From a virus (lineage: Duplodnaviria > Caudoviricetes): a DNA stretch of 62,221 nt. The DNA is taken from positions 1 through 62,221 of the IMG/VR virus record IMGVR_UViG_3300008120_000047; one strand, written 5' to 3'. Made by a program: the position numbers and the translations under genes. The notes below the pieces were generated by a model. It had not been told where the DNA came from, did no database searches, and saw only the letters and a program-made list of their open reading frames with translations. Positions 2,174-62,221 of this stretch are shown here, piece after piece; the stretch's first letter is position 1, and each line of letters starts with the position of its first letter.

Positions 2174-2472
2174 AAATCACATCACACCTCGAGCACGGCC
2201 ACGACCATGAAGAGGTCGAAGTCATCTCAATCAAGTACGTCGACGTAGTTTTCGAGCGAGACGAAGAAACAGCATACCAAACTGTTTTGTCCAATTGGGT
2301 TGTGGAAACCATATACAGGCATGGCAATTTCTACGAAGAAACCGTGACGCTAATTCGGGCAAGCGTAATTCACCGTGACTCAAGAGAGAAGCTGTGCAAA
2401 GCCGAACTCTCCGAAGAGGAAGAGGAAAAAATCAAAGATTACATCTCGAACATAGAAATCATGTACCCATGA
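2170..2472 (+). CDS. Acidic hypothetical protein
   Basis: Coupled ORF in early operon. Confidence 0.7.
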   Translation: MKITSHLEHGHDHEEVEVISIKYVDVVFERDEETAYQTVLSNWVVETIYRHGNFYEETVTLIRASVIHRDSREKLCKAELSEEEEEKIKDYISNIEIMYP

Positions 2473-2882
2473 GCAACATCAAGCTACGATTCCACCTCGC
2501 CCAAGGGCCGAACTTCAAGCATTGGCAGTTGAAAGTAGACGAGGCCGTTTCTTACTACAACCCCGACAACACATCATTCACGATGCAAGACGTGACGCTC
2601 GTCAATAACAAGTCCACGGCACGCAAGATCCACGAAGGCGCGAACAAGACGGTGTGCGCATGGCTTCGACCGAAGCAGGTTCAGGTTAATAGCCTGAATC
2701 TCAATGACCTAAACCAAGCCTTCGATTCCATGCTGGACATGAGGAAAGAGGGCACGTTAGTTCAGGTCATGTACAACCCACGTGAGTTCCCACACTGGGT
2801 AGACAACAGCGGGAACAACTTGGATGGACGCACCCTCCGCAAGGCCATGACCATCGGGAAGCTCATCTACGCTATCATTTAA
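2469..2882 (+). CDS. Conserved phage protein (DVxL...KTVCAW...YNP family)
   Basis: Likely start ATG 2469 (ATGA overlap). Motif pattern recalled from a widespread small phage family; similar segment in the 3249-aa protein. Confidence 0.75.
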   Translation: MSNIKLRFHLAQGPNFKHWQLKVDEAVSYYNPDNTSFTMQDVTLVNNKSTARKIHEGANKTVCAWLRPKQVQVNSLNLNDLNQAFDSMLDMRKEGTLVQVMYNPREFPHWVDNSGNNLDGRTLRKAMTIGKLIYAII

Positions 2883-2920
2883 TCAGTCCTACGAAGTAGG
2901 GAAAAATAGTTGCTTGAAAC

Positions 2921-2952
2921 CTTGGAAATGTGGAAACAACGGCATATCTTTG
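2921..2952 (+). promoter_or_regulatory. Early promoter upstream of tRNA-Ile
   Basis: CTTG, 20 nt, TATCTTTG (2945-2952); shares TTGGAAATGT with the promoter at 437. Confidence 0.8.
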
Positions 2953-3011
2953 CCGAAGTTCGTTGAAAGACAGAGTCCTGCACCTCTACGTTATGAAAGG
3001 TGCACCAACAT

Positions 3012-3085
3012 GGGGGCGTAGCTCAGTTGGTTAGAGCAGGATTCTTATACAATCAAGGCCGTAGGTTCAAGTCCTACCGCCCCTA
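3012..3085 (+). tRNA. tRNA-Ile(UAU)
   Basis: Acceptor GGGGGCG/CGCCCCT plus A73; anticodon arm GGATT-CTTATAC-AATCA; T-arm GTAGG-TTCAAGT-CCTAC. Confidence 0.88.
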
Positions 3086-3106
3086 CAAGGACGGTCTTTC
3101 AACGCC

Positions 3107-3189
3107 CCTCACCCCCTGCCCTGCGTGAATGTCGATCCCGTATCGTTGAGTGGTGTCACTCTTAGCGTATGGGTGGGGGGCTTACGAGG
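3107..3189 (+). ncRNA. Candidate three-way-junction RNA downstream of tRNA-Ile
   Basis: 3112-3121 pairs with 3171-3180 and 3122-3126 with 3165-3169; inner hairpins CGAT/ATCG and GAGTG/CACTC. Confidence 0.45.
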
Positions 3190-3211
3190 TCAAACAAAAA
3201 AATTAAATAGA

Positions 3212-3439
3212 ATGAACAGGTATAAAGAGATGTATTATGAGCAGAACAAGTCACGTGATGCTAACGGAATGATGCAAGAAGAGCTTGATTTCCTGTTCGA
3301 CTTGATTCACCCGTATCAACACTGGATCAAAGCGCATGACACCACAGCAAGCGTGAAGAGATACTTCCGAAATCGATACAGCAACGACATCAACAATTAC
3401 GTAAAGCCTCAGATAGCGGACATAACCCCTGAGTTTTGA
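3212..3439 (+). CDS. Hypothetical protein
   Basis: Likely start ATG 3212 after an A-rich leader. Confidence 0.7.
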   Translation: MNRYKEMYYEQNKSRDANGMMQEELDFLFDLIHPYQHWIKAHDTTASVKRYFRNRYSNDINNYVKPQIADITPEF

Positions 3440-4987: not shown

Positions 4988-5106
4988 TACACCCCTTCTA
5001 CGAGTCATCCCTATGGATCATCACCATCCTTGGATGGGCCATCACAATCACAAACAACATCGAATTGCGAGAGCAACTAATTGAATTTAAGAAAAATGAA
5101 GATTAA
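4984..5106 (+). CDS. 40-aa single-TM peptide
   Basis: MIHPFYESSLWIITILGWAITITNNIELREQLIEFKKNED. Confidence 0.55.
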   Translation: MIHPFYESSLWIITILGWAITITNNIELREQLIEFKKNED

Positions 5107-5710
5107 CGAAGTAACCAAAAACGCAGAAGTTCGTAAGCAACTTCGCCGCAACCTGAAGCATTGGTATTCACAGGCCACTGTTGAGGATAAGTACGAGGGC
5201 CAACGGTGGTACACCGAGGCAAGTCAGTTCGCCTCGTTTCTCTCAGAGAAATACGGGGTGACCAAAGAGATTGCGGCTGGCGTAGTGAGTGCGCTTTCAC
5301 CTAACAACAAGTGGAAGCGAAACAAGATTGACGCAGAACTCGTTCTCTCAGCTTGCGCTGCTGGTATGTCTCCTGATGCAGTCAGCGTATGCACTTTCAA
5401 CGCAAACAAAAAGCGAGCGTTTCAGATTGCCGTAGGCAACTTCAGGATTCTGAAGTCATCCCCAAAGACGTATGCCTTTGCAAGGAACGTAGGAGAAGAT
5501 GACCCATCACACGTCACCATAGATCGGTGGCACATCCGAGCATGTCAGACCACGAGCAAATCACCTATTCAAGTGCAGGAGTCAATCACCTCCAAGCAAT
5601 ACAGCGTAATCGAACAAGAGACCATCAAGGTAGCTAACGAGTTTGGCATCAAGCCACACGAATTTCAAGCCACCATATGGGTATGCATTAAGAATCACTG
5701 GAACCGATAG
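5096..5710 (+). CDS. HhH DNA-glycosylase-like phage protein (DUF7178-like)
   Basis: WY...AAGVVSALSP...W.RN...PKT.AF..N...VTIDRW...FQATIW; the Asp in VTID matches the HhH-GPD catalytic position by inference. Confidence 0.7.
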   Translation: MKINEVTKNAEVRKQLRRNLKHWYSQATVEDKYEGQRWYTEASQFASFLSEKYGVTKEIAAGVVSALSPNNKWKRNKIDAELVLSACAAGMSPDAVSVCTFNANKKRAFQIAVGNFRILKSSPKTYAFARNVGEDDPSHVTIDRWHIRACQTTSKSPIQVQESITSKQYSVIEQETIKVANEFGIKPHEFQATIWVCIKNHWNR

Positions 5711-16721: not shown

Positions 16722-17940
16722 TTATCTTTCTTATTATTTCGTGAATGTCTTCGGGCTTAGTCGCCAACTGCCTAGGCAAAGATAATCCAAAACAATTACA
16801 ATTTTGCCCATACACATTGAGCAGGTAGAGAACGTCATTTGACGTGACCATGTGATCCAGATCTATATCTCCTTCTGTGCAGAACTCGCAGCCCATGTTA
16901 GAAAGCATGACAAGCAAGTCGCTTGTACCTACGTGACAATCCCCGTCTAAATCCCCGAAACAAAACACCTCATCAGAAAACAAGTCAGATCTTTGATACT
17001 CAAGCATAGCATGCATACGATCTATCTGTCCGTCAGTAAACACATCTCTGCATTCTTCTGGACAGTAGTCCATATGGTTGTTGGGGTAGAACTGCACCCC
17101 TCCGTAATTCATCAATGGGCAATGATACCCTGGAACATCTGGACAGCCTTGGCTAACCTTTGTAGGAGGCGTGTCGCACACGTAGTCTCCACTGTGTTCA
17201 CAAGGGCCTAGGTATTGACCGCAGTTAGATATGGCGCTTGCGCCGTTCTTAAACACATGATGCAGTCCGCAGTAGTGACCAACCTCGTGAGTAAGGGTTT
17301 CATTCTCAAACCTGAACGTGAGGTGAGGCCCGTATGTCCCCATCACTTCTGTCTCTACCCACACCCCGTCCAACACGCTATAGGGAATATATGTAACCCA
17401 TGCAAAACCAAGGATCGATGAGCAGAAGTCTGGGGCAACGTAGATATTGCAGTACTCTGCGGTATTCCATTTAACCATGTTAGTCCACTGAGCCATCTGC
17501 GTTCCGTACTGAGGGAAGCACACCCCAGATCCTGACCTATACGAAGAGGCCCATGTGAAGCTGTTCAGATTGGTATAATCGATGTCCTCAAGAGTGAACG
17601 AGATGTCAGTTCCTTCAAAGTCCACATTCAGCTGAACCATAGCATCCTCAATAATAGACTCTTGGATTTGGCTATTGGCAAACGCTGTGTCCCAAAGCAC
17701 ATGAACTACGCACTTAATCTCTTTGTGGTTGTATGCAGTTCTATTTTTTGTATGGTTCTTTGGGAGTATGTCTTCTTGAGGCCCCATAACGAAGCACTCC
17801 TCTTGAGCTACAGCTGGGGAGGAGCATGACGAGAACGCCATAAAGAGCAATACGACCATCACGGCCAGCACCTTCAAAAACACAAACGCACTACAATCGT
17901 ATACCGTATCGTATATGCTGGCTGATTCTCCTGTTCTCAT
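16699..17940 (-). CDS. M43 (pappalysin/ulilysin-like) zinc metalloprotease with signal region and dockerin-like C-terminal repeats
   Basis: HEVGHYCGLHH; GD.VCDTPP; Met-turn NHMDY; FT.GQ..RM; GDLDGD and GDIDLD repeats. Confidence 0.92.
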   Translation of the reverse strand: MRTGESASIYDTVYDCSAFVFLKVLAVMVVLLFMAFSSCSSPAVAQEECFVMGPQEDILPKNHTKNRTAYNHKEIKCVVHVLWDTAFANSQIQESIIEDAMVQLNVDFEGTDISFTLEDIDYTNLNSFTWASSYRSGSGVCFPQYGTQMAQWTNMVKWNTAEYCNIYVAPDFCSSILGFAWVTYIPYSVLDGVWVETEVMGTYGPHLTFRFENETLTHEVGHYCGLHHVFKNGASAISNCGQYLGPCEHSGDYVCDTPPTKVSQGCPDVPGYHCPLMNYGGVQFYPNNHMDYCPEECRDVFTDGQIDRMHAMLEYQRSDLFSDEVFCFGDLDGDCHVGTSDLLVMLSNMGCEFCTEGDIDLDHMVTSNDVLYLLNVYGQNCNCFGLSLPRQLATKPEDIHEIIRKINDSQKKN

Positions 17941-18395
17941 CTTTTATTTAGTTTTACTTTTTCATAGGATCTTCCAGCAAAGTATGCTGTAAATGCGGTA
18001 GTCATCAGTATGCTGAACGTGTCTATGTACGCTGATTTTATGTTAAACAACACTTTATCAGCGCTATCCATGGCTACAAATATAGTAAAAACAAAGACCA
18101 GATAACACAGCATGATTGGCCTTATGTTCTTTGATAACCAAGAGTCAGACATCATATCCGCCTTCCATCTCTCGGTTACGTTATTCTGTGCGTTAGCCTC
18201 GTAATCAAGCAGCATCTTCTCAAACTCCATCTTTTCCTGAGCGGTCATGTTGGGGTCAAGATCAATCAGCCTTTTCACAACGCCAAGGGCGCCTTGGTCT
18301 GGAAGCAGTTCGCCTACCGTGTCGAGGACTTGCGGGGCTTTGTCTTTTAGCCAAGTTCCCAACTTGGTATCTTTTAGTTTCTTTCTGTCTCTCAT
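17937..18395 (-). CDS. Holin-like membrane protein (GTA 3TM type)
   Basis: RWKADM.SDSWLSKNIRP, two TM helices, AYF.GRS.EK. Confidence 0.8.
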   Translation of the reverse strand: MRDRKKLKDTKLGTWLKDKAPQVLDTVGELLPDQGALGVVKRLIDLDPNMTAQEKMEFEKMLLDYEANAQNNVTERWKADMMSDSWLSKNIRPIMLCYLVFVFTIFVAMDSADKVLFNIKSAYIDTFSILMTTAFTAYFAGRSYEKVKLNKR

Positions 18396-21300
18396 GGCTG
18401 GAGGCTTTGGTGTCTTTTCTCTATAAGGTCAAGCAGATAAACAGAGTGAGGCATAAACGTACCGTCTGGATAGTACTCTATCATAGAGTTATACTTTCCG
18501 TTTATTTCGTTTAGAGCATCGATCTTCTCTGCGTCAGACATGTTCTGGTATTCAGGTCTCCTCATGAACTCCTGTATGTGAACATATCTGTGTGAGTTAG
18601 ACATCTCAAGCATGTCGTTAAGTTCTTCTGCTGTAAGAGAGAACCTAAATTCCTCGCCAGTCTTACCTATAAACGAGTAGCTCTTGCCTCTATCTCTAAG
18701 CTTATCGAGAGCGACTCTAGCCTTCTTCTCCTTGAACGAAGGGACTTCAAGCTTTCTATGTACAGAGGAAGCGTAGTACGGAGTACCAACCGCCTTAGGG
18801 AGCTCTCCAGTTCTTGTGTAGATACCAAGTATCTCTATAGACACTGGGTCGCTTCCAGTTGTTGTCGTCTTGTATGGGTCAAACATGTAGTACGCGAACT
18901 GATTACCACCCTTTGGCGCCTGATCAATTCTCTCGCCCTTCCAGTTAACTTTTACAGGAAGTCCGTCGGTGTTAAAGGTTCTTTCTTTTACGTGATTGAA
19001 TATTCTGTTCATGAGACTTTCATCTCTCTTGTCTGGCAAGAACTCTCTGGTTGCCATATTAGCTCCAGAGAAGAAGTTTGGAATAGCCATTGCGGTGTAT
19101 GCCTTAGACAGGCTCTCGGCATATCTCTCCATGGCTATCTCAAGCTTTTCTGGATCAGACTCAGTGATCACCTCAAGCATTCCATTCAAGCCTTGCATGA
19201 AGCTCTGGTCCATCATGTATGAAATAAGAGATGCGTTTTCCATGCCCAAGAATCTCTTAAGCACATTTATACCCTTTGTGGGGTTATTGATGGCATCTTG
19301 AGCTGCCTCTTTAGTCATGCTCTGAGCGTAAGCGCCCATGATGGAGCCAAGCACCCCAAATGTCTGGTAGCTCTTGTATACATCACCTTCCTGAGGCGTT
19401 GGATCTTCTCCGTTCATAAGCCTTTTAAGAGCGCTTATATTGATGCTGTTGGGAGGCAGGACGTCATACATGATGTTGGTCTTCTCGTCGTCCTCCCAGT
19501 CAACAGCCCCGCTAAGTACCCCACCAGCAATCATGTAAAGAGCACCTTGAGTAAAGACCTGTCCCACCATAACCTTGGTAGCATTCTTCGACGCCTCTTC
19601 TGCATTGTTGTTTAGAATATTAGAAGCGACTCTTGCGGTTCCGAATGCGGGAGATATATAAGTCAGCGACTCCTCCATAAAGTTGGCAATGGTCGTGACA
19701 TAGGGTACGTTAGACCTGATGAAGAATCTAAAGAACCCAGGCGCATCAAACCCTTTGTTGTTTTCGAACATCTTGCCAAGACCTCTCGAGATGTTGCTTA
19801 TGATCCACATGCTACCCCTAGCAAGTCCCCCTTCTTTCTGGAAGGTCATTCTAGCCCCTTCATCTGCCGCCTTGTCCATGGCCTCTCTGTTTGGGTACTT
19901 AAGGAATCTAGCCAGCTCAGTCCCCTTAAGTCCCTTGCCAACACCTATGTGGTATAATTCTGTCGCTTCAGCGAATCTTCTAAATGGAATATCTCCGAGC
20001 GACAGGAACCTAAACATAGTTTCAGCTGGTATACCAAACGTCCCAGCCACCAAAAGCTTGGCCCTAGAGTTCAGTCTCTGACGACCGTTTTTGGTTTGAG
20101 GTATGTCGTTAGACAAAGCTGCGATCAAAGATCTTACGGGCATAAAACCTCTGTCCATCCTCCATTCAGCCACCTCCTTGGATCTGCCAGTAGCCACCTG
20201 TTCAACTGCCTCCACCCAACCAGAGCCAAACTTCTTTATTCCATGTAGATACGCAGCCATGCTAACCCTTCTGCCAGACGTCTTCATTCCCATCAACCCA
20301 AGCAACTTCTCGATTGGGTATGACGTAAGGTCAACCATGGTTCTCGGGAACATCTGGGCTATGTTGTAGGCGATGTTTTTGGCTTGAGACATAGACGTGA
20401 GCAGGTTACCCTGCATGAGCTGTATACCTATGTCTGACCAAGTCTTGTCTACGAATACATTGGTGAGCGTGTCCAGCTTTGCTTGAGCTTCCATGTGGCG
20501 CTTCATGGCCTCATTAAGCTCTACTTCTACATCTTCGCCAGCGATGGCTCTATCCAGAAGCGCTTGATACTCTCTGTATGAATCCATGAATGAATCAGCT
20601 GCCAGCTGAAGGTCATTCTTCTGGCTCTCGCTTAATACCTTTCCTTGGCTTTCTGAGAGCTTTGCAATCATCGAATAGATGCCAAAAGAAGTGGACGTCT
20701 TGAGTTCGGCAAACTGTCTAAGCAGTCTACCAACTGAAGTACCCATTTTCGCTAAGTCTTCGAGCACCCCTGGGATAGCTTCCGTTCTTCCTTCTGTTTG
20801 AAGCCTGTTGATGATCTCTATAGCGGCAAGAACTCCAAGATCATCGTTTCTGTTCATGAGAGATCCAAGCTTATCTCCTCTCATCATGGACACCAATTCT
20901 TGAATACTCTTGCCTCTCAGCTCTTCTTTTGCAGCGCCAAGGTGTTGTGTATCAAGATAATTGTTTGGGTTGTCCAGTATGTCATTTTTTATCTCATAAA
21001 AATCCTCCGAAACAGAAGCCCTTTCAGCAGTTCCTCTTAGCCTGCCCTTCTTCTTGGCAGGATTCACCATTATGGCCCTCTGGTTTTCTGGGGTTAAAGA
21101 ATCAAAAATATCAAGCAGCATGTCCTCGTCTTCGGTGTAAGCCTCAGGCATGTACTTTCTCAGGTTCTCCCTAACCGCCTCAATTATGTCTTCATTCTGA
21201 GCCTGCGTTCTTGTTGCTGCTGAGGCAGTTGTCTCGGCTGCGCTGAGACCATTCTTGTTCATAGACTCTGGGTAGTACTGTATGTTGCCTCTCGCAATCA

Positions 21301-24300
21301 TCTTACCGCCTATAAACGTCACTTCGTCTGCGCTCTTTATGAGCCTTCCATTCTCGTCAGCAAACCCGTTATTTCTCAGCGGGTCCATCTCTATCAACAC
21401 CCCAGTCATCAAATCGTCCCCTTCTTGAGGGCGTCTAAACTTTCCTGATACGTGTCTCTTTGGCCCTTCGTTATTAGTAGCTATACCAGCCATGCTAAAC
21501 GCTGAAGGACGTGGAAACTTAACGTCAGTTAGAACAGTTTCACTCGTGACGTGCATTGGTTGCCCACTAAGTGTCTTTGACACGTTAATCACAGGGAATA
21601 ACGTCTCAGACATTATCCTTGGATCCACATAAGCAAATACCCTTTGACCTTCTTTTGGCTCTGATCCTTGAGCCAGCAATGCCGAATGCAGGGGGTAGGC
21701 CGAAACGACATCTGTCAAGTTATCTTGATCCAGTAGATCACCGTTAGGGCCAATAAAAGAGTCCAGTCCATGAGTTCTTGATTCTCCTGGGACTAGGCTA
21801 TACATAGCCTGTCCTTCGTAGACCCTGTCTAGCTCAGTGCCCTCCATCAACATTACAAGTCCATCGCTAGCTCTCTCGCTTAATTCAGCGTCAAATATGC
21901 CACTCGCTCTCTCTGTTGTGGCTGCGACCATGGCGTCCCGATAGGTCTGGTATTGACTGCCAGACACCCCAGCCACAGACCTTTGATCATGGTTCAAATG
22001 AAATAACATCTGTTGCGCGGTCGCTACAGTTACGTTAGTGCCATATAGCTTAGACATTTCCTGAGCCATTCTGGTCACAACCTTCGAGTTAAAGCTTCTC
22101 TCCTCGTTGCCCCTTGGTTTGGTAGGGAGTATATCCTTTTTGTTCTTATTAAACCATTTTGATATTTCTTTTATTTGTTTATCGTTAAAACCAAGATCCA
22201 TGCCTTTGTGGTTCTCGTAGCAACTTCTGACAATCAAATCAGATATAAAGGCGATCCTTGCCTTCGGCGTTTCAAGGGCTTTATAGTTTTCTTTTCCAAG
22301 TATTTTTTCTAATTGCTTCCATGGAATACGCTTCATTTTAGAGCCCCTGAACACATTGATTACCTGTACCAGGTGCGCGTCCTGCGTCAATACATTTTCA
22401 TTGCCTATTAAATTAGATGCCCAAGCCCCAACTTTCTGGGAAAGAAATTCCATCAAGGCTGAATTTGCCCATCTAGTCTCAAGTCCTGGCTTGTTTGCGA
22501 GATCCATCAAGAAAGCGTCATAAGACCCACCTACATCATTTCCTTGTATGTTGTTTATGAACTTCTTAAGTTGTTTGCCTATTGACTTGGCTCTATGTGG
22601 ATTGACGCCTACTTTTTTGAATGCGTTTGCGTTCTCCACTTTATTCATAAGACCCCTTATTGTCTTCTTTTTAACATCTATACTTCCGTCTTGAGCCATG
22701 TTTCTGGCCAGAGACATCATCACATATTTAGCAAGGGCTATGTTGTTGAAAGAAGTATTTCCGTTTGACGTTATAGCTATTATACACTTGAAAAGATTTA
22801 TGTTGTTGTTAGCCCAGTCAAGCCCCTTTTGCCCGCCAAAGTCGGATGGGTCTGAGTCCCTCAAGAACTCAACTATAGCGGAGTTAGTCTCCTCAAAAAA
22901 AGACATGGATCTAAGAGTGCCCCCTTTAATCTTTTCGTCAAACGCGGACATAACAGAGTCCACCGCTCTCTCAGATATTATCCTGGAAGCTCTGTCGGTC
23001 ATGGTTAAAAGCGGCGTAAGTCTTCCAGCCGCATGCAATACGTTCTGGGCATATATGGAATCAACCATGGCGCCAGTCCTGTCTCCTTCAAAAGCATATC
23101 TTTTGGCGTTCTCTTCTGGAACGCCTATAGACCTCAAAAGAGCATACATATCTTTCTGGTGAAACTCTCTTTCGGATTTTGGCGACGAATCAATTCGGTC
23201 TGCCAACAAAGAAAACTTCATCCTAAAATCCGCTTGACTTCTTGCTGGGCCAACGTCCAAAGAGAACATTGCGGTTTCAGCCCCCATGCCGTCTCTCTCT
23301 TGTATGTATTCATCAAGAAGTGAGTAAGCATACTGTATATGCTCTATAGATCCTTCTAGAACTCTACCAGATGGAGTGCTTACATATCCATTAGCGTCTG
23401 CGTTCTCTAGCCCATATGAACGCAGTGCAGTTGCAGACCCTGAAGCACCATACTTAGCCGATATAAACTCTTTAATACCATTAGATACAACGATCCAATT
23501 ACTTCTTAATTGGTCTTTGTTTTTCTGATCTTTGAATCTACGATCTAGTTCTTTAGCTTCATATGATATAGGTCTGTTATATTTTTCTCTGCCGAGAATC
23601 TCTCCAGTTTGTTTGTTCACCTCAGGGGCTGGGGGTCTGAGTTCTTTTTTATTGCCCTGATCATCGATATAATAGAACTCGCTCACCATCTTATCTCTCC
23701 CGTTATTGGTCATGTAGTTATACCAATTCCTGAAGTGAGCGTAGTCATTAAATGTTTTTTTGTGGTTTTTTACTTTAGTTGTTACTCCCTGCTTATTTTC
23801 AAACGTCTCTTGGTACTCAACGGTCTTGTTGTACAGGAATGACTTTTCACCTCTAAAAGAGAACAGTGCCTCATCTGGTGACTGGGTCTCTGCATTTTCC
23901 TCTTGCGAATCCTCTATGTCTAGTTTCTCCTGTATCTGATTTACTGAAAGTCCTTTATTTGCGACCAAGGAATCAGAAAACATTTTGATCAGCCTGTACT
24001 TAGAAACCTCTGAAAACTCCTCAGTCTTCACTCCAAACACAGACAATGCCTTTTTTATAGCCTCAAAGATTGGCTCCATTAGTTCTGCCAATTTCTCTTT
24101 TGGGCCTCCAGGTAGTTTTACATTTTTGCTCAGCACCATAGAAAGAGCCTCGGCCAGCTGCTCTTCCTCCACAGGTAACCCCCTAATTCCAACCCTTTCA
24201 TAAACATCTTTCTTGTCTTGCATAAGTCTCGCAAGAACTTCGTCTTTTGCTAGTATAGCATGGCAAGCCCTAATCAACCTAGCCTTGGCCCCAGTTCCTA

Positions 24301-44915: not shown

Positions 44916-47282
44916 TTAGTATGATGTTAATGTATTTGTAGATGAAAATGCTCCTTTTGAATTAGACTTGTATATTCTATATTCTATAGACACACTAAAT
45001 TGATTTGTTATATTGAACGCTACTGGTGAGCCAAAATCGCTTATTACAGATGTTGACCCATCCATGTTTATTACACTTAACGCACCACCAAGTGAAGTTG
45101 GATAAAGTATATAAGAAAAATTACTTGTGTTGTTTGTGTCAGAAGATCCGTTAAACGTCATTGGGGCACCTAAACTTATCGTGTTATCTCTCAATACACT
45201 ATTGGCAAAAGGAGTGGTGTCATAAATAGCGTCAGCAGCGGTTGGTGTTCCTGGCAGAGCGTTTGGAGAAGCCAAGAACTTAACAGCGAATTTTGATAAG
45301 GTTACAGTTGTTTCGTTTCCACTAGCACCAGTTGGATTTGATGGATAGCTTGTGGTTGGGACTACTCTATAAAGTATAGACGAAAGACTCGAAGAATTAT
45401 TTGTGTAGTTGTCTGTATAGGTTTTGCTTCCAATGTAAGGAGAAGGAAATGCATGTATGCCTGTGTAGCTAGTGCCTCCATCTATAGATCTTTGAAGAAC
45501 TAAAGAGTTGATGGGCACGTTTGCGGAGTTTATCGTCACGTTGAACGTCACAGTACTTGATGTGTTTCCCTTTTCTCTAATAGCATTTATTTCACCACTA
45601 GAATTAGATGTAGAAATTCTTGCCGCCGTTAAAGATCCTATGCTAGGAACCAAATAGGCTTCTGGACTTCTTGTAAGTACTTGTTCAGCAAAATAACTAT
45701 TATCACCAACGTCTTCTACCCTAAACTTATACGTAAACCCAGCTGTTGCATAAGCGCTAAGAGTGTATGAGTTAGGAAATGACTGACTTCCAGTTGCAGC
45801 CGATGAAAAGCTAGCCGATGTATGTATCAAAGCGTAAGTGGAATCTGACGCCCCCTCATTTTTTCTATACACAAGAACCCGTATAGACCTTCCTAGGTTT
45901 GAGTTTAAGTTATTTGCGTTATAACTAACTGTAACTGAAGAAGGATCCGTTGTGTTAAACGGTATAGTGCTTACGCTCCAAGAAGAAAAGCTTGGATTTT
46001 GAACTAACTGAACCGCGTCTATAATTAAGTCAAGCGCAGATTTATAACTAGATATAGTTATGGTGTCATTCGTTATATATTTACCAAACGATCTGCCGTT
46101 AGGTATACTGACTGGTATGCTGGTATTTCTAGCAAGGCTTATGTTTTCAAAAGAATCCTCATCCCAGAACGATCCCTGTCCAGCCTGTGCACCAGCTAAC
46201 GGGGTTATGCTTGATTGATTAACAGAGAATGTTCCGCTAACCGTAGTAGAATCACTTAATGTGGTGGTAACGGTATTGTTTGTTACAGAAACACCCGTGA
46301 CAGATTTACCAGCGGCCCCTGCGGGACCAGTAGCACCAGTAGCTCCAGTAGGACCTTGAAGTCCTTGAGGACCAGTGGCCCCAGTAGCACCCTGAGGCCC
46401 AGTCGGACCAACTAAAGACACCCCTGTACCCCAGTTAGTTCCTACCTTTGGACCGAATATATTCTTTGAAGAAGTGTTTATGTAGAAATCCCCTGCCACT
46501 CCAGTGCCACTAGATGGATCTGAAGTGCCATTAAGAACTGTTTTTCCATCAACCCCATTTGCACCAGCTGCACCCGTAGCGCCCGTCGCGCCAGCTGGAC
46601 CCTGGAGCCCTTGGGGGCCTGTAGCGCCCGTAGCCCCAGTTGCACCCGCAATACCTTGAGGGCCTTGAGCTCCTGTCGCCCCAGCTGCTCCTTGAGGTCC
46701 AACCAAAGAAACACCACTGCCCCATCCTCCAGCTGTTTTTGGGCCAAAAATTAAGTTTGAAGACGTGTTTATATAGAAATCTCCAATAACCCCCAGATTA
46801 GCCGCTGGACTGGTTGTTCCGTTTAATACCGTTTTTCCATCTATTCCGTTCGTTCCAGCAGGTCCAGTAGCCCCAGTAGGACCAGCAGGTCCAGTAGCGC
46901 CAGTAGGACCAGCAGGTCCAGTAGCGCCCGTTGCCCCCTGAATGCCTTGTGGTCCAGCGGCTCCAGTAGCGCCAGTATCACCTTTTAATCCTTGAATCCC
47001 TTGAGGTCCTTGAGGGCCTTGTTGACCAAGCTGAACCCAGTTAGAAGCATTCTGCCATTCCGTATTACCTAGATCAGTTGAAGTGTATACGTAAAAAACA
47101 TCTAAATCTTTTACCAGCGCTATATACCCTTCGCATCTCACGGAAGGACTCAATGAGTTTCTGTTCGGGGCGACTCCAGATATGGTAGCGAAAACGCCAA
47201 GGCCCTTGACCTGATTTCCAGTCACGTCAATTATGGCTTCGTTGGGGTTGTTGTGCGTTACTAGACCTGGAAATATAGGCAT
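44916..47282 (-). CDS. Collagen-repeat fibre protein
   Basis: Three Gly-X-Y tracts separated by two DGKTVLNGT...GDFYINTSS...FGPK modules. Confidence 0.85.
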   Translation of the reverse strand: MPIFPGLVTHNNPNEAIIDVTGNQVKGLGVFATISGVAPNRNSLSPSVRCEGYIALVKDLDVFYVYTSTDLGNTEWQNASNWVQLGQQGPQGPQGIQGLKGDTGATGAAGPQGIQGATGATGPAGPTGATGPAGPTGATGPAGTNGIDGKTVLNGTTSPAANLGVIGDFYINTSSNLIFGPKTAGGWGSGVSLVGPQGAAGATGAQGPQGIAGATGATGATGPQGLQGPAGATGATGAAGANGVDGKTVLNGTSDPSSGTGVAGDFYINTSSKNIFGPKVGTNWGTGVSLVGPTGPQGATGATGPQGLQGPTGATGATGPAGAAGKSVTGVSVTNNTVTTTLSDSTTVSGTFSVNQSSITPLAGAQAGQGSFWDEDSFENISLARNTSIPVSIPNGRSFGKYITNDTITISSYKSALDLIIDAVQLVQNPSFSSWSVSTIPFNTTDPSSVTVSYNANNLNSNLGRSIRVLVYRKNEGASDSTYALIHTSASFSSAATGSQSFPNSYTLSAYATAGFTYKFRVEDVGDNSYFAEQVLTRSPEAYLVPSIGSLTAARISTSNSSGEINAIREKGNTSSTVTFNVTINSANVPINSLVLQRSIDGGTSYTGIHAFPSPYIGSKTYTDNYTNNSSSLSSILYRVVPTTSYPSNPTGASGNETTVTLSKFAVKFLASPNALPGTPTAADAIYDTTPFANSVLRDNTISLGAPMTFNGSSDTNNTSNFSYILYPTSLGGALSVINMDGSTSVISDFGSPVAFNITNQFSVSIEYRIYKSNSKGAFSSTNTLTSY

Positions 47283-47288
47283 GGCTTG

Positions 47289-49772
47289 TTATCCATTTTT
47301 TATAGTTATACCGACACCGCTTGCAAATGCGCCTGGTGATTTAGTCTTATATATCCTATAAGGATTTGAAATGCCAAACTTGTTTTCGATGTTAAGGGTA
47401 CTTACTGGCTGTTCGAAATCAGATAAAACCTCAGTCGCCCCTTGAAGAACGGACGTTAAAGCAGACTGATTAGTCGGGTACATTATATATGTAAAGTTTG
47501 AGGTGGAATTAGTTTGAGTTGTTCCAGCCACTGCCCACCCACTTGGGTGTGGGAATGTTTCTGTAGTGGTTCTTAAAAGGCTTGTTGTTGAAGTTGTTCC
47601 TTGTAAGTTGTCAAAAATTGTTTTAGCTTGGGCGGCGGTTGTTGGCAGCCCATTTGGATGTGCACCAAATTTGTGTGCGTACCTATTCATCACAACAGCT
47701 GTAAAATCCCTTGTAGTAAATACGGTAGCACCTTGATACGAATCGTATATTTTAAGCCTATAAATTATAGATGCGGCGCTTGATGGGGCAGCGCTATCAA
47801 TATATCCAGAAACAGTATATGAAGTAGAGTTTGCTGGTATATCCGTTGTAGTCGTCCATGATCTTAACGAGGTTTCTACACCTAAAACAACTCTAAACAA
47901 ATCAACCCTTTGTATATATATGTTTGTGTTTGCCGCTGAAGACACTGTAAATGAAACATTGCTTGTCACATTCCCTACCTCTCTGCTGGCATCCGTCTCA
48001 CCAGCTAAAGAATCCGTGAATAGCCTTCTCGTTGCCGAAGGAGAGGACAAGGTAGGCGCAGCAAAATTACTAGTAGTTCTTGTTACTTCCGTAGGAGACG
48101 ATATAATGGATGGATTTTCTGTTACCGATGCCGTTATTCTATAGGTAAAGCTGTCAGTAGAGTACTGAGTGACTGGCCCCCATGCGTACGAGTTGCTAAA
48201 GCTGTTACTTGCTGACGTGTAAGAAACGGTCTGCAAAACAGAGTATGACCCACTGCCCTGTTTTCTTTCTATAGTAACAGTAACCCCTTTCCCCATAAGC
48301 GTGTTTGGGTTTCCAACCGTAAAAGATAAAGTTGTATTCCCAGATAGCGTATTAAAAGCCACTGGATTCGGAGACAAACTAACTGATGTTATCGTTGGTG
48401 TTTGTATGTCCTGAACCGCATCCCTTATTATCTCAAGCATGGACCTTGCGTTGCCTATATGTATAGTGCTTCCGTGCCCATACTTCCCAAAAGACTTACC
48501 AGAAGGAAGGCTAACGGTTATGGCCTCTGAGTTTGGGTTTACAAATTCTTTAGCGACGAATGTTTCCCCATCCCAGTAGAAGCCAGACCCCGCAGCAGTC
48601 CCTGAGGGGGCGTCTATACTAGTTTGGGTTACAGCAAAACTTCCGTTTACTGTGGAATTATTGCTAAGGGTTGTTGTAACAGACCTATTTGAAACAGATA
48701 CTCCAGTAACCGACTTCCCGTCTGCTCCAGCAGGGCCTGTGGATCCAGTTGGTCCTGTTGCACCAGTTGGTCCAGCGGGTCCAGTAAGACCCGTGGGACC
48801 AGTATCGCCTGTATCCCCCTTTGGACCCTGTGCTCCAGTCGTGCCAGCTGCGCCAGCAGGCCCAGCAACACCTTGCGGTCCTTGAGGGCCTTGGGCTCCA
48901 GTAGCACCAGCAAGTCCTTGAGGCCCCTGAGCACCTTGAGCGCCAGTAGCCCCAGCGGGCCCAGTAGCGCCAGTAGCGCCAGCGGGCCCCTGTGGTCCAG
49001 TAGGCCCAGCAGGTCCTTGCGGTCCAGCAACAGCACTAGCTATTAAATGTGCTGTGATTATTACGGACGGTATTCTTGGCCTAAGGGGTAACGGATGGTC
49101 CGAAAAAGCTGGATCCTCATAGTAAAGCCGCACGGCTGAATCTTGTGAGGCCCAGTGTATCTGAACATAGTCATCATTTTCTGCCCTTACTAAGTAATTC
49201 CAGGCAGCGACCATTTTGGCGTTATTCTTATCGAGCTCAATTCTAGTGTTAGAGTCCTTTACGTCTGTTCCGTTTTGAGAAAACCAAACGTCAGCATGAT
49301 CAACACCAGAATCTGTTTTATCGAACTGGGCAGAGAACTGTACGTTATAAACACCGTACGTAAGAAACTTAAGCTTGTTTCCATCTACAACAGTAATTCC
49401 ACTGGCTATGTCTGCTGTAGGGAATGACATAGTGTTCTTTACGTTAGCGCCCAAAGATGGCTGCATTGACGTAGAGTAGAATACCCCGTATTTAGCGTCC
49501 GTTCCTTGAACAACCTCTACTACAGGTATTTGATTGTATGGGTATATAGATAAAGAATTTTGTCTTTCAAGACTCGTCTTTACTACAGACTGTGTGGGTG
49601 GGTAGAAAGAAAGACTATTACTCGCTGGCGTAGTAATATCCAGCGATACTTGATTATCAGAAGTTATAGATATGGTGGCGAACTCAGAGGTTACAGTCTT
49701 TATGGACTGAGACTCTGGTACGTTTATAGATATTGAATTTCCTGGAGGTAAGGTGAATCCAACATTCATCAC
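47289..49772 (-). CDS. Collagen-repeat fibre protein
   Basis: C1q/BclA-like domain ([10 protein letters not shown]...AWNY), about 100 aa of Gly-X-Y, C-terminus paralogous to 44916..47282. Confidence 0.85.
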
Positions 49773-60101: not shown

Positions 60102-60636
60102 CAAAAGACACAAAGCACCGCTTCCACAACTACTTTGCATTCTAGCAAGCGGGGCTCTCGCAAGCCCCCGCAGCTGCCTTAGCTAAAGAAGCGTAGCAAA
60201 GTTACAACTTTTTCGGGTAAAAGTCAAGTAGGTCTCACCGCCTGTGGATAAAATTTTTGAGTTATACGTGATCTTGGGGTTGCGCCCCTACATACGTGTC
60301 GTCACGCGTAAACCGAAACCGAATCCTAAGACCCCGTAGGGGTTCTTAGAGACAGATTTCACCTAACTTTTCAGCTTTTTAAGCTGATTGTCAAGCAGAA
60401 AGGCAGCTTTGGTTGAAGCAGAACTGCAATTGAGCTTTGTGAATCGTTGATTCACAGCAAGAAGCAAACCCTCCTCGTCTCACACCTAACCTCAGCTCAC
60501 CTCAGGGGGGCCTTACTCCCCTAAAGGGGAGTAAGAAATATATCAAGGGGGGTCAGATTTGCAATTTCGGAATTTGCCGTAGTATCTTTGGGGCCATCGG
60601 TTTCGCTGTTGAAGCCGTCTCAAAACACTCTCAGCT
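60102..60636. other. Non-coding region between divergent arms, rich in inverted repeats
   Basis: CCCC-GTA-GGGG, TGTGAATC-GTT-GATTCACA, CTTACTCCCCT-AA-AGGGGAGTAAG; - strand TAACTTTG at 60197-60204. Confidence 0.7.
60558..60590 (+). promoter_or_regulatory. First early promoter
   Basis: TTTG, 21 nt, TATCTTTG (60583-60590). Confidence 0.85.
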
Positions 60637-61275: not shown

Positions 61276-61397
61276 GCCGAAGGCTCCGCTGGCGTCAGGT
61301 GAGGCGTGAGGGGTGTGTGTGATGCACACTCGCTCATGCCCACACTGGGCCGCTCACAAGTGGAGTCACCATCTAACCTTTAGGTTAAAAAAATAAA

Positions 61398-61430
61398 TTT
61401 GGATTTGTGGAATCTTTGTCCGTATCTTTG
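61398..61430 (+). promoter_or_regulatory. Early promoter (paralogue of 437-469)
   Basis: TTTG, 21 nt, TATCTTTG; shares AGGTTAAAAAAATAAATTTGGA and TCAATCAATC. Confidence 0.85.
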
Positions 61431-61457
61431 GGCCATCAATCAATCAAACCCCCTGTC

Positions 61458-62021: not shown

Positions 62022-62221
62022 ATGATGACCTTCAACGAATCCCGAAAGTACTTTGCAGAGCAAGTCCTTCAAACAGGTGGAGCTACGCTCCGAGCAGTAC
62101 GAAACGAGAAAGGAATCCAAGGATTCGAACTCCCGCCTGAGACGGGGTACATGGTCAGCTACAAGCTGACTGAAGACCGAGATTTCTTGGTCATCGAAAT
62201 CGATGACGACCAAAACATGAC
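62022..62221 (+). CDS. 5' part of junction-spanning early protein (continues to 415; about 166 aa)
   Basis: ATG at 62022 reads MMTFNESRKYFAEQVLQTGGATL...PETGYMVSYK, in frame with the ORF at 44..415. Confidence 0.85.
   Translation, partial: MMTFNESRKYFAEQVLQTGGATLRAVRNEKGIQGFELPPETGYMVSYKLTEDRDFLVIEIDDDQNM
62108..62221. repeat. Terminal direct repeat, copy 2
   Basis: Exact copy of 1-114. Confidence 0.97.

Follow-up and report, generated by a model that had tools for sequence, protein, structure and literature searches.

A strongly diverged PF25735-like domain in a giant phage protein and a distant stand-alone relative among the early genes of the same genome

Polyvalent proteins are known from phages and conjugative elements; those of phages are encoded next to late virion genes, and those of their domains that lack characterisation, the LPD domains, can be found on their own as well, according to the portion of their description drawn on here (Iyer et al. 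2017, PMC5512222); the word 'glycosylase' is absent from the main text of that paper. The Pfam family PF25735 (Phage_L5_gp82), with a curated gathering cut-off of 27 bits, is itself uncharacterised. Here we describe two relatives of this family in one phage genome, the IMG/VR record IMGVR_UViG_3300008120_000047, whose whole length of 62,221 bp is referred to as the window. The first is a domain of a giant open reading frame (ORF) of 3,249 aa (P0001; 18392..28141, minus strand, taken from the ORF list and its translation). The second is a stand-alone early protein of 137 aa (2469..2882, plus strand), assigned by Pfam, family hits and a structure model. The initial annotation had compared by eye the span 21290-21650, equivalent to giant residues ~2165-2284 (with TVLTDVKF starting at 2202 and GGKMIAR at 2278), with the early protein. 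We consider the embedded domain and the early protein to be, with high confidence, homologous and distant members of the PF25735 superfamily. A diverged PF25735 copy in a cargo protein, together with a solo early member, is the explanation that best covers all observations, and we hold it to be probable.

The relationship between the two proteins is carried by comparison of enriched profiles. An alignment of 31 giant-type sequences (A3) matched one of 131 small-family sequences (A4) in hhalign with a probability of 92.3% and an expect value (E) of 5.4e-7 over 117 columns, pairing residues 2167-2286 of the giant protein with residues 3-137 of the small one. A re-run of the enriched profiles returned 93.8%, E 1.7e-7 and a score of 46.4, with 114-117 columns aligned across runs. 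For comparison, 30 column shuffles gave scores of at most 20.1 (median 10.7), and the reversed alignment scored 13.1. The embedded domain and the small protein share about 12% identity in the profile alignment, which sets TVLTDVKF against FTMQDVTL and VLIEMDP... against VQVMYNP...; the pairing of TVLTDVKF with FTMQDVTL proposed by eye, with its spacing, thus recurs in the same register. Shallow hhalign runs, though at background level, had produced exactly the C-terminal pairing first noted by eye.

Both sides of the comparison are also linked to PF25735 through Pfam. The family was matched in 9/9 aligned members of the small-protein family, and the proteins P0021, P0034 and P0076 scored 27.4-28.9 bits, at or above the cut-off; the small protein of the window scored 17.5 bits in a six-frame search. 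On the giant side, the homologue P0020, which is 25% identical in the region, carries PF25735 at residues 1948-2067 with 33.5 bits, above the cut-off, and the full-length alignment maps this span to residues 2165-2282 of P0001. Giant-type relatives of the domain matched PF25735 in 10/10 cases and reached the cut-off in 8/10, with bit scores of 41.1 and 42.3 for loci L008 and L030. Searches by tblastn with the P0020 domain recovered solo proteins, all 119-126 aa long, from Mycobacterium phage Acolyte (gene 82), Limnohabitans phage DC31, Streptomyces Lika-like phages and Bacillus SPO1-like phages. A bridge profile of five solo phage proteins (Acolyte gp82, DC31, Godpower, Bp8p-C and f2b1) aligned with the giant region over 120 columns at 86.4% and E 4.7e-6 without P0020, or at 97% and E 8.4e-11 with it, and with the small family over 113 columns at 66% and E 5.6e-5. 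The corresponding bridge scores were 39.7 and 30.6, against maxima of 19.9 and 16.4 in 20 column shuffles each, and the enriched giant-type profile met the bridge at 98.8% and E 8.8e-17. The giant segment (residues ~2165-2286; 21284..21649, minus strand), delimited by the P0020 Pfam mapping, hhalign, the structure model and its neighbours in the BFVD database, is therefore a strongly diverged PF25735 (mycobacteriophage L5 gp82-like) domain of about 120 residues, basic and mostly beta, and the early 137-aa protein, which diverged from it anciently, is another member of the superfamily. Both window segments align over their full length with family members in profile-profile comparison. They differ from accepted members, which reach the cut-off, in that neither window copy does so; the small protein sits in a large separate subfamily, KTVCAW, and the tail of the embedded copy bears the motif GRxIKSAxE, with several conserved polar residues lost from this copy. 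Scanning viral contigs yielded 34 further loci with the giant-type domain, and the small family comprises 619 cluster representatives (E<=1e-3, 50% identity).

Two AlphaFold models, built from separate alignments, show the same arrangement of secondary structure. The model of the small protein has a predicted local distance difference test score (pLDDT) of 93.6 and a predicted template modelling score (pTM) of 0.85; that of the giant domain has a pLDDT of 84.3, a pTM of 0.81 and one poor loop. Both contain eight or nine strands around one helix with an identical order of elements, to which the small protein adds a second helix, inserted at residues 78-93. The top 20 BFVD neighbours of the small model (probability 0.97-1.00) all lie within the top 21 of the giant model. 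Some of these common neighbours are solo proteins, about 100-135 aa long, that occur in Bacillus, Streptomyces and Mycobacterium phages; others are large proteins with several domains, from uncultured phages, that are labelled as Zeta toxin, ART-PolyVal, LT_GEWL, tail lysozyme or PcfJ-like. Both models match solo proteins of Bacillus phage Staley, Streptomyces phage Muntaha and Mycobacterium phage SWU2 with a probability of 0.97-1.00 and template modelling scores of 0.48-0.66, the PF25735 membership of these three being deduced from their phage groups. No solved structure resembles either model: a Foldseek search of the PDB with the small model gave no match at E<=0.001, and comparison of the small protein with PDB sequences returned nothing meaningful. 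The initial annotation had named differing predicted folds as grounds for dismissing the resemblance; the order of strands and helix proved to be the same in the two models. Its central claim, that the giant domain resembles the early protein, is confirmed by the enriched profiles, the Pfam link and the common fold neighbours.

Several observations weigh against homology and have to be set beside this evidence. BLASTP of the giant against the small protein gave no alignment in the domain region, with a best E of 0.089 elsewhere. Profile comparison of P0001 and seven giant homologues with nine small homologues stayed at background (0.44%, E 0.14), as it did against a small-family profile of 151 sequences (2%, E 0.024), and a hidden Markov model (HMM) of the same 151 sequences gave negative scores for all nine giants. 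The small protein reaches PF25735 with 19.5 bits (E 9.5e-4), below the cut-off, and the embedded segment of the window does not match the family at E<=1. The significance of the relationship thus depends on the canonical relatives added to the profiles, since the direct comparisons remained at background. On the structural side, the likeness of the two models rests on strand order and BFVD neighbours, not on direct superposition, and canonical relatives predominate in the alignment behind the giant-domain model, in which confidence is low at residues 79-86. If the failure of BLASTP and shallow profiles were taken at face value, the two segments would be unrelated and their resemblance a product of chance. 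We regard this as very improbable, given E values of 2-5e-7 for the enriched profiles, shuffle maxima below half of the observed score, Pfam links on both sides, and independent models that have 20/20 top structural neighbours in common. A background probability in profile comparison had also been put forward as the outcome that would speak against the match; it was obtained with shallow profiles and gave way to 92-94% with the enriched ones. A match made by eye and invisible to BLAST and shallow profiles can therefore be real.

The giant ORF is flanked by a holin-like ORF (17937-18395) and by virion structural genes, and the virion structural proteins, tail fibres, portal and terminase are encoded on the same strand. 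It has eight full-length relatives of 3,042-3,250 aa. Two modules were identified in it, one PF25735-like and one DUF7178-like, and about 2,900 residues lie outside both. The best-conserved aligned part, with a mean column identity of 60%, directly follows the domain (residues 2285-2800, 516 aa; 19742-21289), compared with 28% in the stretch of equal length upstream of the domain; it has no Pfam, PHROG or PDB match and may represent the core function of the giant or its virion anchor. The whole C-terminal region after the domain (residues 2287-3249; 18395..21283, minus strand), delimited by column identity, has no assigned function. Profiles of the flanking regions returned nothing meaningful against PDB sequences, and no further module common to the giant or its flanks and the ORFs of the window was significant in BLASTP and HMM comparisons with all window ORFs.

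Like the polyvalent proteins, as far as the cited portion of their description goes (PMC5512222), the giant is very large and multi-domain and its gene stands among late virion genes; its modules, too, are shuffled between architectures and occur solo. Because virion-gene position, shuffled modules and solo occurrences match that description, we lean towards reading the giant as a candidate polyvalent cargo protein, one that would be packaged in the capsid and reach the host along with the DNA. The hallmarks given in the same portion of the paper, MuF, portal, metallopeptidase and methylase-helicase domains, were undetected in the giant by Pfam and PHROG, and the lack of any MuF, portal fusion or zincin-like peptidase in P0001 at a Pfam E<=1 counts against the cargo reading. 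The homologue P0017 has a sub-threshold match to Tox-MPTase4 (E 0.02).

In size and position the giant ORF may resemble the giant virion genes of other podophages. The giant could be a structural or enzymatic part of the virion without being ejected, for instance an N4-type virion RNA polymerase, a tail protein or a needle protein, which the domain only decorates. A PHROG scan of the 20 larger ORFs of the window recognised neither a DNA polymerase nor an RNA polymerase, and the latter result would suit such a role. The giant itself, on the other hand, has no PHROG at E<=0.01, no Pfam family above cut-off and, at E<=1, no match among PDB sequences beyond a de novo design, and both of its modules belong to types seen in phage proteins that have several domains and bear effector-domain labels. 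We therefore judge a non-ejected component to be improbable beside polyvalent cargo.

The neighbour of the PF25735-like domain had been called glycosylase-like, and this description holds for a DUF7178-like module resembling HhH-GPD glycosylases at residues ~1783-1943 (22313..22795, minus strand). It was recognised by language-model features in the Atlas and by direct and bridged hhalign. The Atlas feature search with residues 1650-2165 returned clusters of PF23802 (DUF7178) in 27/30 matches, in which only 14-33% of the members carry DUF7178. Direct comparison of a DUF7178 profile (46 sequences) with the region upstream of the domain was weak (7%, E 0.005) and aligned SPKTYAFA...VTIDRWH of DUF7178 with SQKVGAWA...LTQDAH of the giant. 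A bridge of six modules from other architectures reached the giant core at 98.0% and E 1.9e-13 and DUF7178 at 89.1% and E 2.3e-6, and a pooled alignment gave 45% and E 2.2e-4 with a shuffle maximum of 13.1. The giant module is thus linked to DUF7178 transitively, through sequence intermediates. Its solo counterpart in the window is an early DUF7178 protein, likewise HhH-GPD glycosylase-like, encoded at 5081..5710 on the plus strand (PF23802, E 1.5e-37, 129.9 bits), with 148 homologues at E<=1e-3.

HhH-GPD glycosylases have a helix-hairpin-helix followed by a conserved Asp, and in the bifunctional members a catalytic Lys lies about 18 residues upstream of it. In the 46 DUF7178 sequences Lys129 and Asp148 are invariant, and the giant module has the corresponding Lys1903...Asp1921 motif in SQKVGAWA..LTQDAH (22370-22441), so that this module and ORF 5081-5710 have in common a Lys...(18-19 residues)...Asp-x-His/Trp motif. 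We take this spacing to be the HhH-GPD signature. The DUF7178 profile also aligned weakly (E 0.3, 70 residues) with the region after the catalytic Lys of the archaeal Ogg N-glycosylase/DNA lyase (PDB 3fhf, 3knt). A 3,506-aa open frame of another genome (G013:C1:44364-45158) carries DUF7178 above the Pfam cut-off (48.9 and 39.3 bits); the same genome has a solo small-family gene and no detectable giant-type PF25735 copy.

The initial annotation had further proposed that the two families act as a pair. Both do occur fused, within the giant, and also as separate genes of this genome; their acting together did not find the same backing. The survey drew on 34 loci, 80 loci and 16 genomes (G000-G015). 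Co-occurrence across phage genomes, which had been suggested as a check, gave a divided answer: the domain and the glycosylase-like module share one ORF in 23/34 viral loci, yet a DUF7178 gene lies within 3 kb of the stand-alone small gene in only 5/80 loci, plus the window. Among the 23 loci with a shared ORF, 17 represent one protein family and six (L015, L018, L023, L031, L032 and L039) have other domain orders, with different spacings or the opposite order. In the remaining 11/34 loci the PF25735-like domain has no glycosylase-like module in the stretch examined, and five of these are short ORFs of 231-473 aa. Ten complete genomes with a solo small gene comprised two with a solo DUF7178, one with DUF7178 in a giant frame and seven with none at Pfam level. 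Complex prediction for the solo DUF7178 and solo small proteins scored 0.10 against a mark of 0.32, which is evidence neither for nor against an interaction. These sequence comparisons suggest a link between the two modules, though not an obligate one.

An obligate two-part system of PF25735-like and DUF7178 glycosylase-like domains, fused or solo, would find its best case in the giant and early region of this genome, in the shared ORFs, six of them with a different domain order, and in the few closely spaced solo genes. We nevertheless think it rather unlikely: the five short ORFs carry the domain alone, 75/80 solo loci have no DUF7178 within 3 kb, most complete solo-gene genomes lack a Pfam-level DUF7178, solo members of L5-like, Streptomyces and Bacillus phages stand in other contexts, and 17/23 of the co-occurrences come from a single protein family. 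More speculatively, and with still lower probability, the two domains could be halves of an undescribed DNA-directed early effector, in which a base-excision-type enzyme would be joined by a DNA-binding or specificity partner of new fold and brought in by two delivery routes, pre-packed in the capsid or expressed immediately early. Such an effector would process incoming or host DNA, or blunt defence based on DNA modification, and the nearly exclusive occurrence of canonical embedded and solo copies would then reflect two interchangeable delivery routes.

The distribution of embedded and solo copies bears on this last point. Among the 34 loci, 17 have the order seen in the window (upstream module, domain, C-terminal core), 12 are large ORFs of other make-up and five are short; the domain is thus shuffled among at least four architectures in addition to the short ORFs. 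The short ORFs (L021, L029, L030, L034 and L037) encode a giant-type variant with a GRxIKSAxE-type tail, and they lie on contigs of 11.5 to 202 kb, two of them longer than 150 kb, hence not of the phage type of the window. Longer carriers are also found in the small family: in P0021 (843 aa) a GNAT acetyltransferase at 139-222 directly precedes the small-family domain, with three matched stretches, and P0153 (708 aa) and P0034 (276 aa) are further examples. The solo small gene is present in 0/4 of the complete genomes G002-G005; in G002, G003 and G005, which were compared with PF25735, the embedded copy is canonical and scores 47 bits. A giant-type copy was found in 1/10 of the complete solo-gene genomes (G015). 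Only two of G000-G015, the window and its close relative G001, combine a solo gene with a diverged embedded copy. These counts are small and uncorrected for relatedness; they hint that two delivery routes might substitute for each other.

The divergence of the embedded copy is itself a difficulty for a functional domain in the cargo protein. At family-conserved positions the copy of the window has R->Y2171, N->D2173, K->E2225 and N->D2253, and the His column is deleted; G001 has in common with it the R to Y change, both N to D changes and the loss of His, and the K to E change is seen in the window. The diverged embedded copy may therefore have lost the activity of the family. Taken further, it could be a degenerate relic that retains the PF25735 fold as a structural spacer, with the activity carried by the solo early gene. 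The exchange of several conserved polar residues in this clade, to the point that its copy escapes Pfam, would fit such a relic, as would the pattern across genomes, in which canonical embedded copies go without the solo gene in G002-G005, solo-gene genomes other than G015 go without the giant-type copy, and the diverged copy accompanies the solo gene in the window and G001. However, giants with 53-73% identity in the region hardly differ in the stretch MTGVLIEMDPLRNNGFADENGRLIKSADEVTFIGGKMIARG, and this strong conservation within the clade argues for continued selection on the embedded copy and against a relic, and the genome pattern is subject to the same small, uncorrected counts. A relic appears unlikely to us, if less so than a non-ejected virion component or an obligate pair, and we retain the reading of a diverged PF25735 domain within a cargo protein.

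Under this reading, the giant would be packed in the capsid and enter the host with the DNA, the early gene 2469-2882 would be transcribed from the left end, and the domain would therefore be supplied twice at the start of infection, once injected and once expressed. The domain might bind nucleic acid, or a host factor that meets the incoming DNA. An early-acting, DNA-directed role in nucleic-acid- or DNA-entry-associated binding is a tentative guess from sequence and context, made because the domain is basic, shares a polypeptide with the HhH-GPD-like module and occurs in solo form in early and recombination blocks. Isoelectric points have medians of 9.17 in the small family (151 sequences), 9.63 in the bridge proteins (five sequences) and 8.44 in giant-type domains (40 sequences). 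Erf is encoded near the solo relative in 37/80 loci and a PDDEXK nuclease in 25/80, often at a distance of 1-2 kb; in Streptomyces phage Godpower the solo gene is three genes from an Ocr-like gene. It weighs against any such assignment that no paper was found under PF25735 or DUF7178 and that no member has a known function; a search for 'gp82' with 'mycobacteriophage' returned none on L5 gp82 among the matches listed, as judged by titles and the first lines of abstracts. An Atlas search with the small protein yielded only retrotransposon-gag-like clusters with low counts of shared features, and these were set aside as chance matches. What the comparison does add is that a large family of small early proteins, with its 619 representatives, and a module of a giant protein of the virion block are now tied to PF25735. 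A fold with no solved relative, supplied at the start of infection by two routes, would have a profile that fits host-takeover or anti-defence effectors, and its glycosylase-like company and the pattern of embedded and solo copies provide testable hypotheses.

The record bears an exact direct repeat of 114 nt at 1-114 and 62108-62221 and is classed as having direct terminal repeats and as 100% complete, so that the window represents a whole phage genome. Plus-strand genes from 1 to about 16 kb encode Erf, an exonuclease VIII-like protein, a primase/helicase and ribonucleotide reductase, and minus-strand genes from 16.5 to about 55.5 kb encode the holin-like ORF, virion structural proteins, tail fibres, portal and large terminase. 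The small gene lies on the early strand, 2.5 kb from the left terminal repeat, and its start overlaps the stop of the ORF 2170-2472 by 4 nt. Over 94-95% of its length, the portal shares about 30% identity with the portals of Cellulophaga phages phi38:1 and phi40:1 and of the Flavobacterium 'elemo' phages, all of them Flavobacteriia podophages with genomes near that of the window phage in size. Searches of the phage record collection by tblastn or blastn gave no match to the small protein, the protein P0009, the C-terminal 965 aa of the giant (2285-3249) or 4 kb of its DNA.

Repeated elements were also observed. An 84-nt element has copies at 411-494 and 61372-61455, near both genome ends, with 77% identity, and the shorter stretch 60558-60590 was noted alongside it. 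The element contains an inverted repeat (TCTAACCT..AGGTTA) and a TTTG...TATCTTTG pattern, which resembles the promoters of Bacteroidota. This promoter-type pattern has three matches in the window, all on the plus strand, and at least three occurred in 26/100 shuffles, so its frequency is at chance level. A 102-nt unit is present in 18 overlapping copies with 9-nt register shifts at 46287-46979 and 48750-49040, within two tail-fibre-like ORFs (44916-47282 and 47289-49772) that match collagen-like tail-fibre PHROGs.

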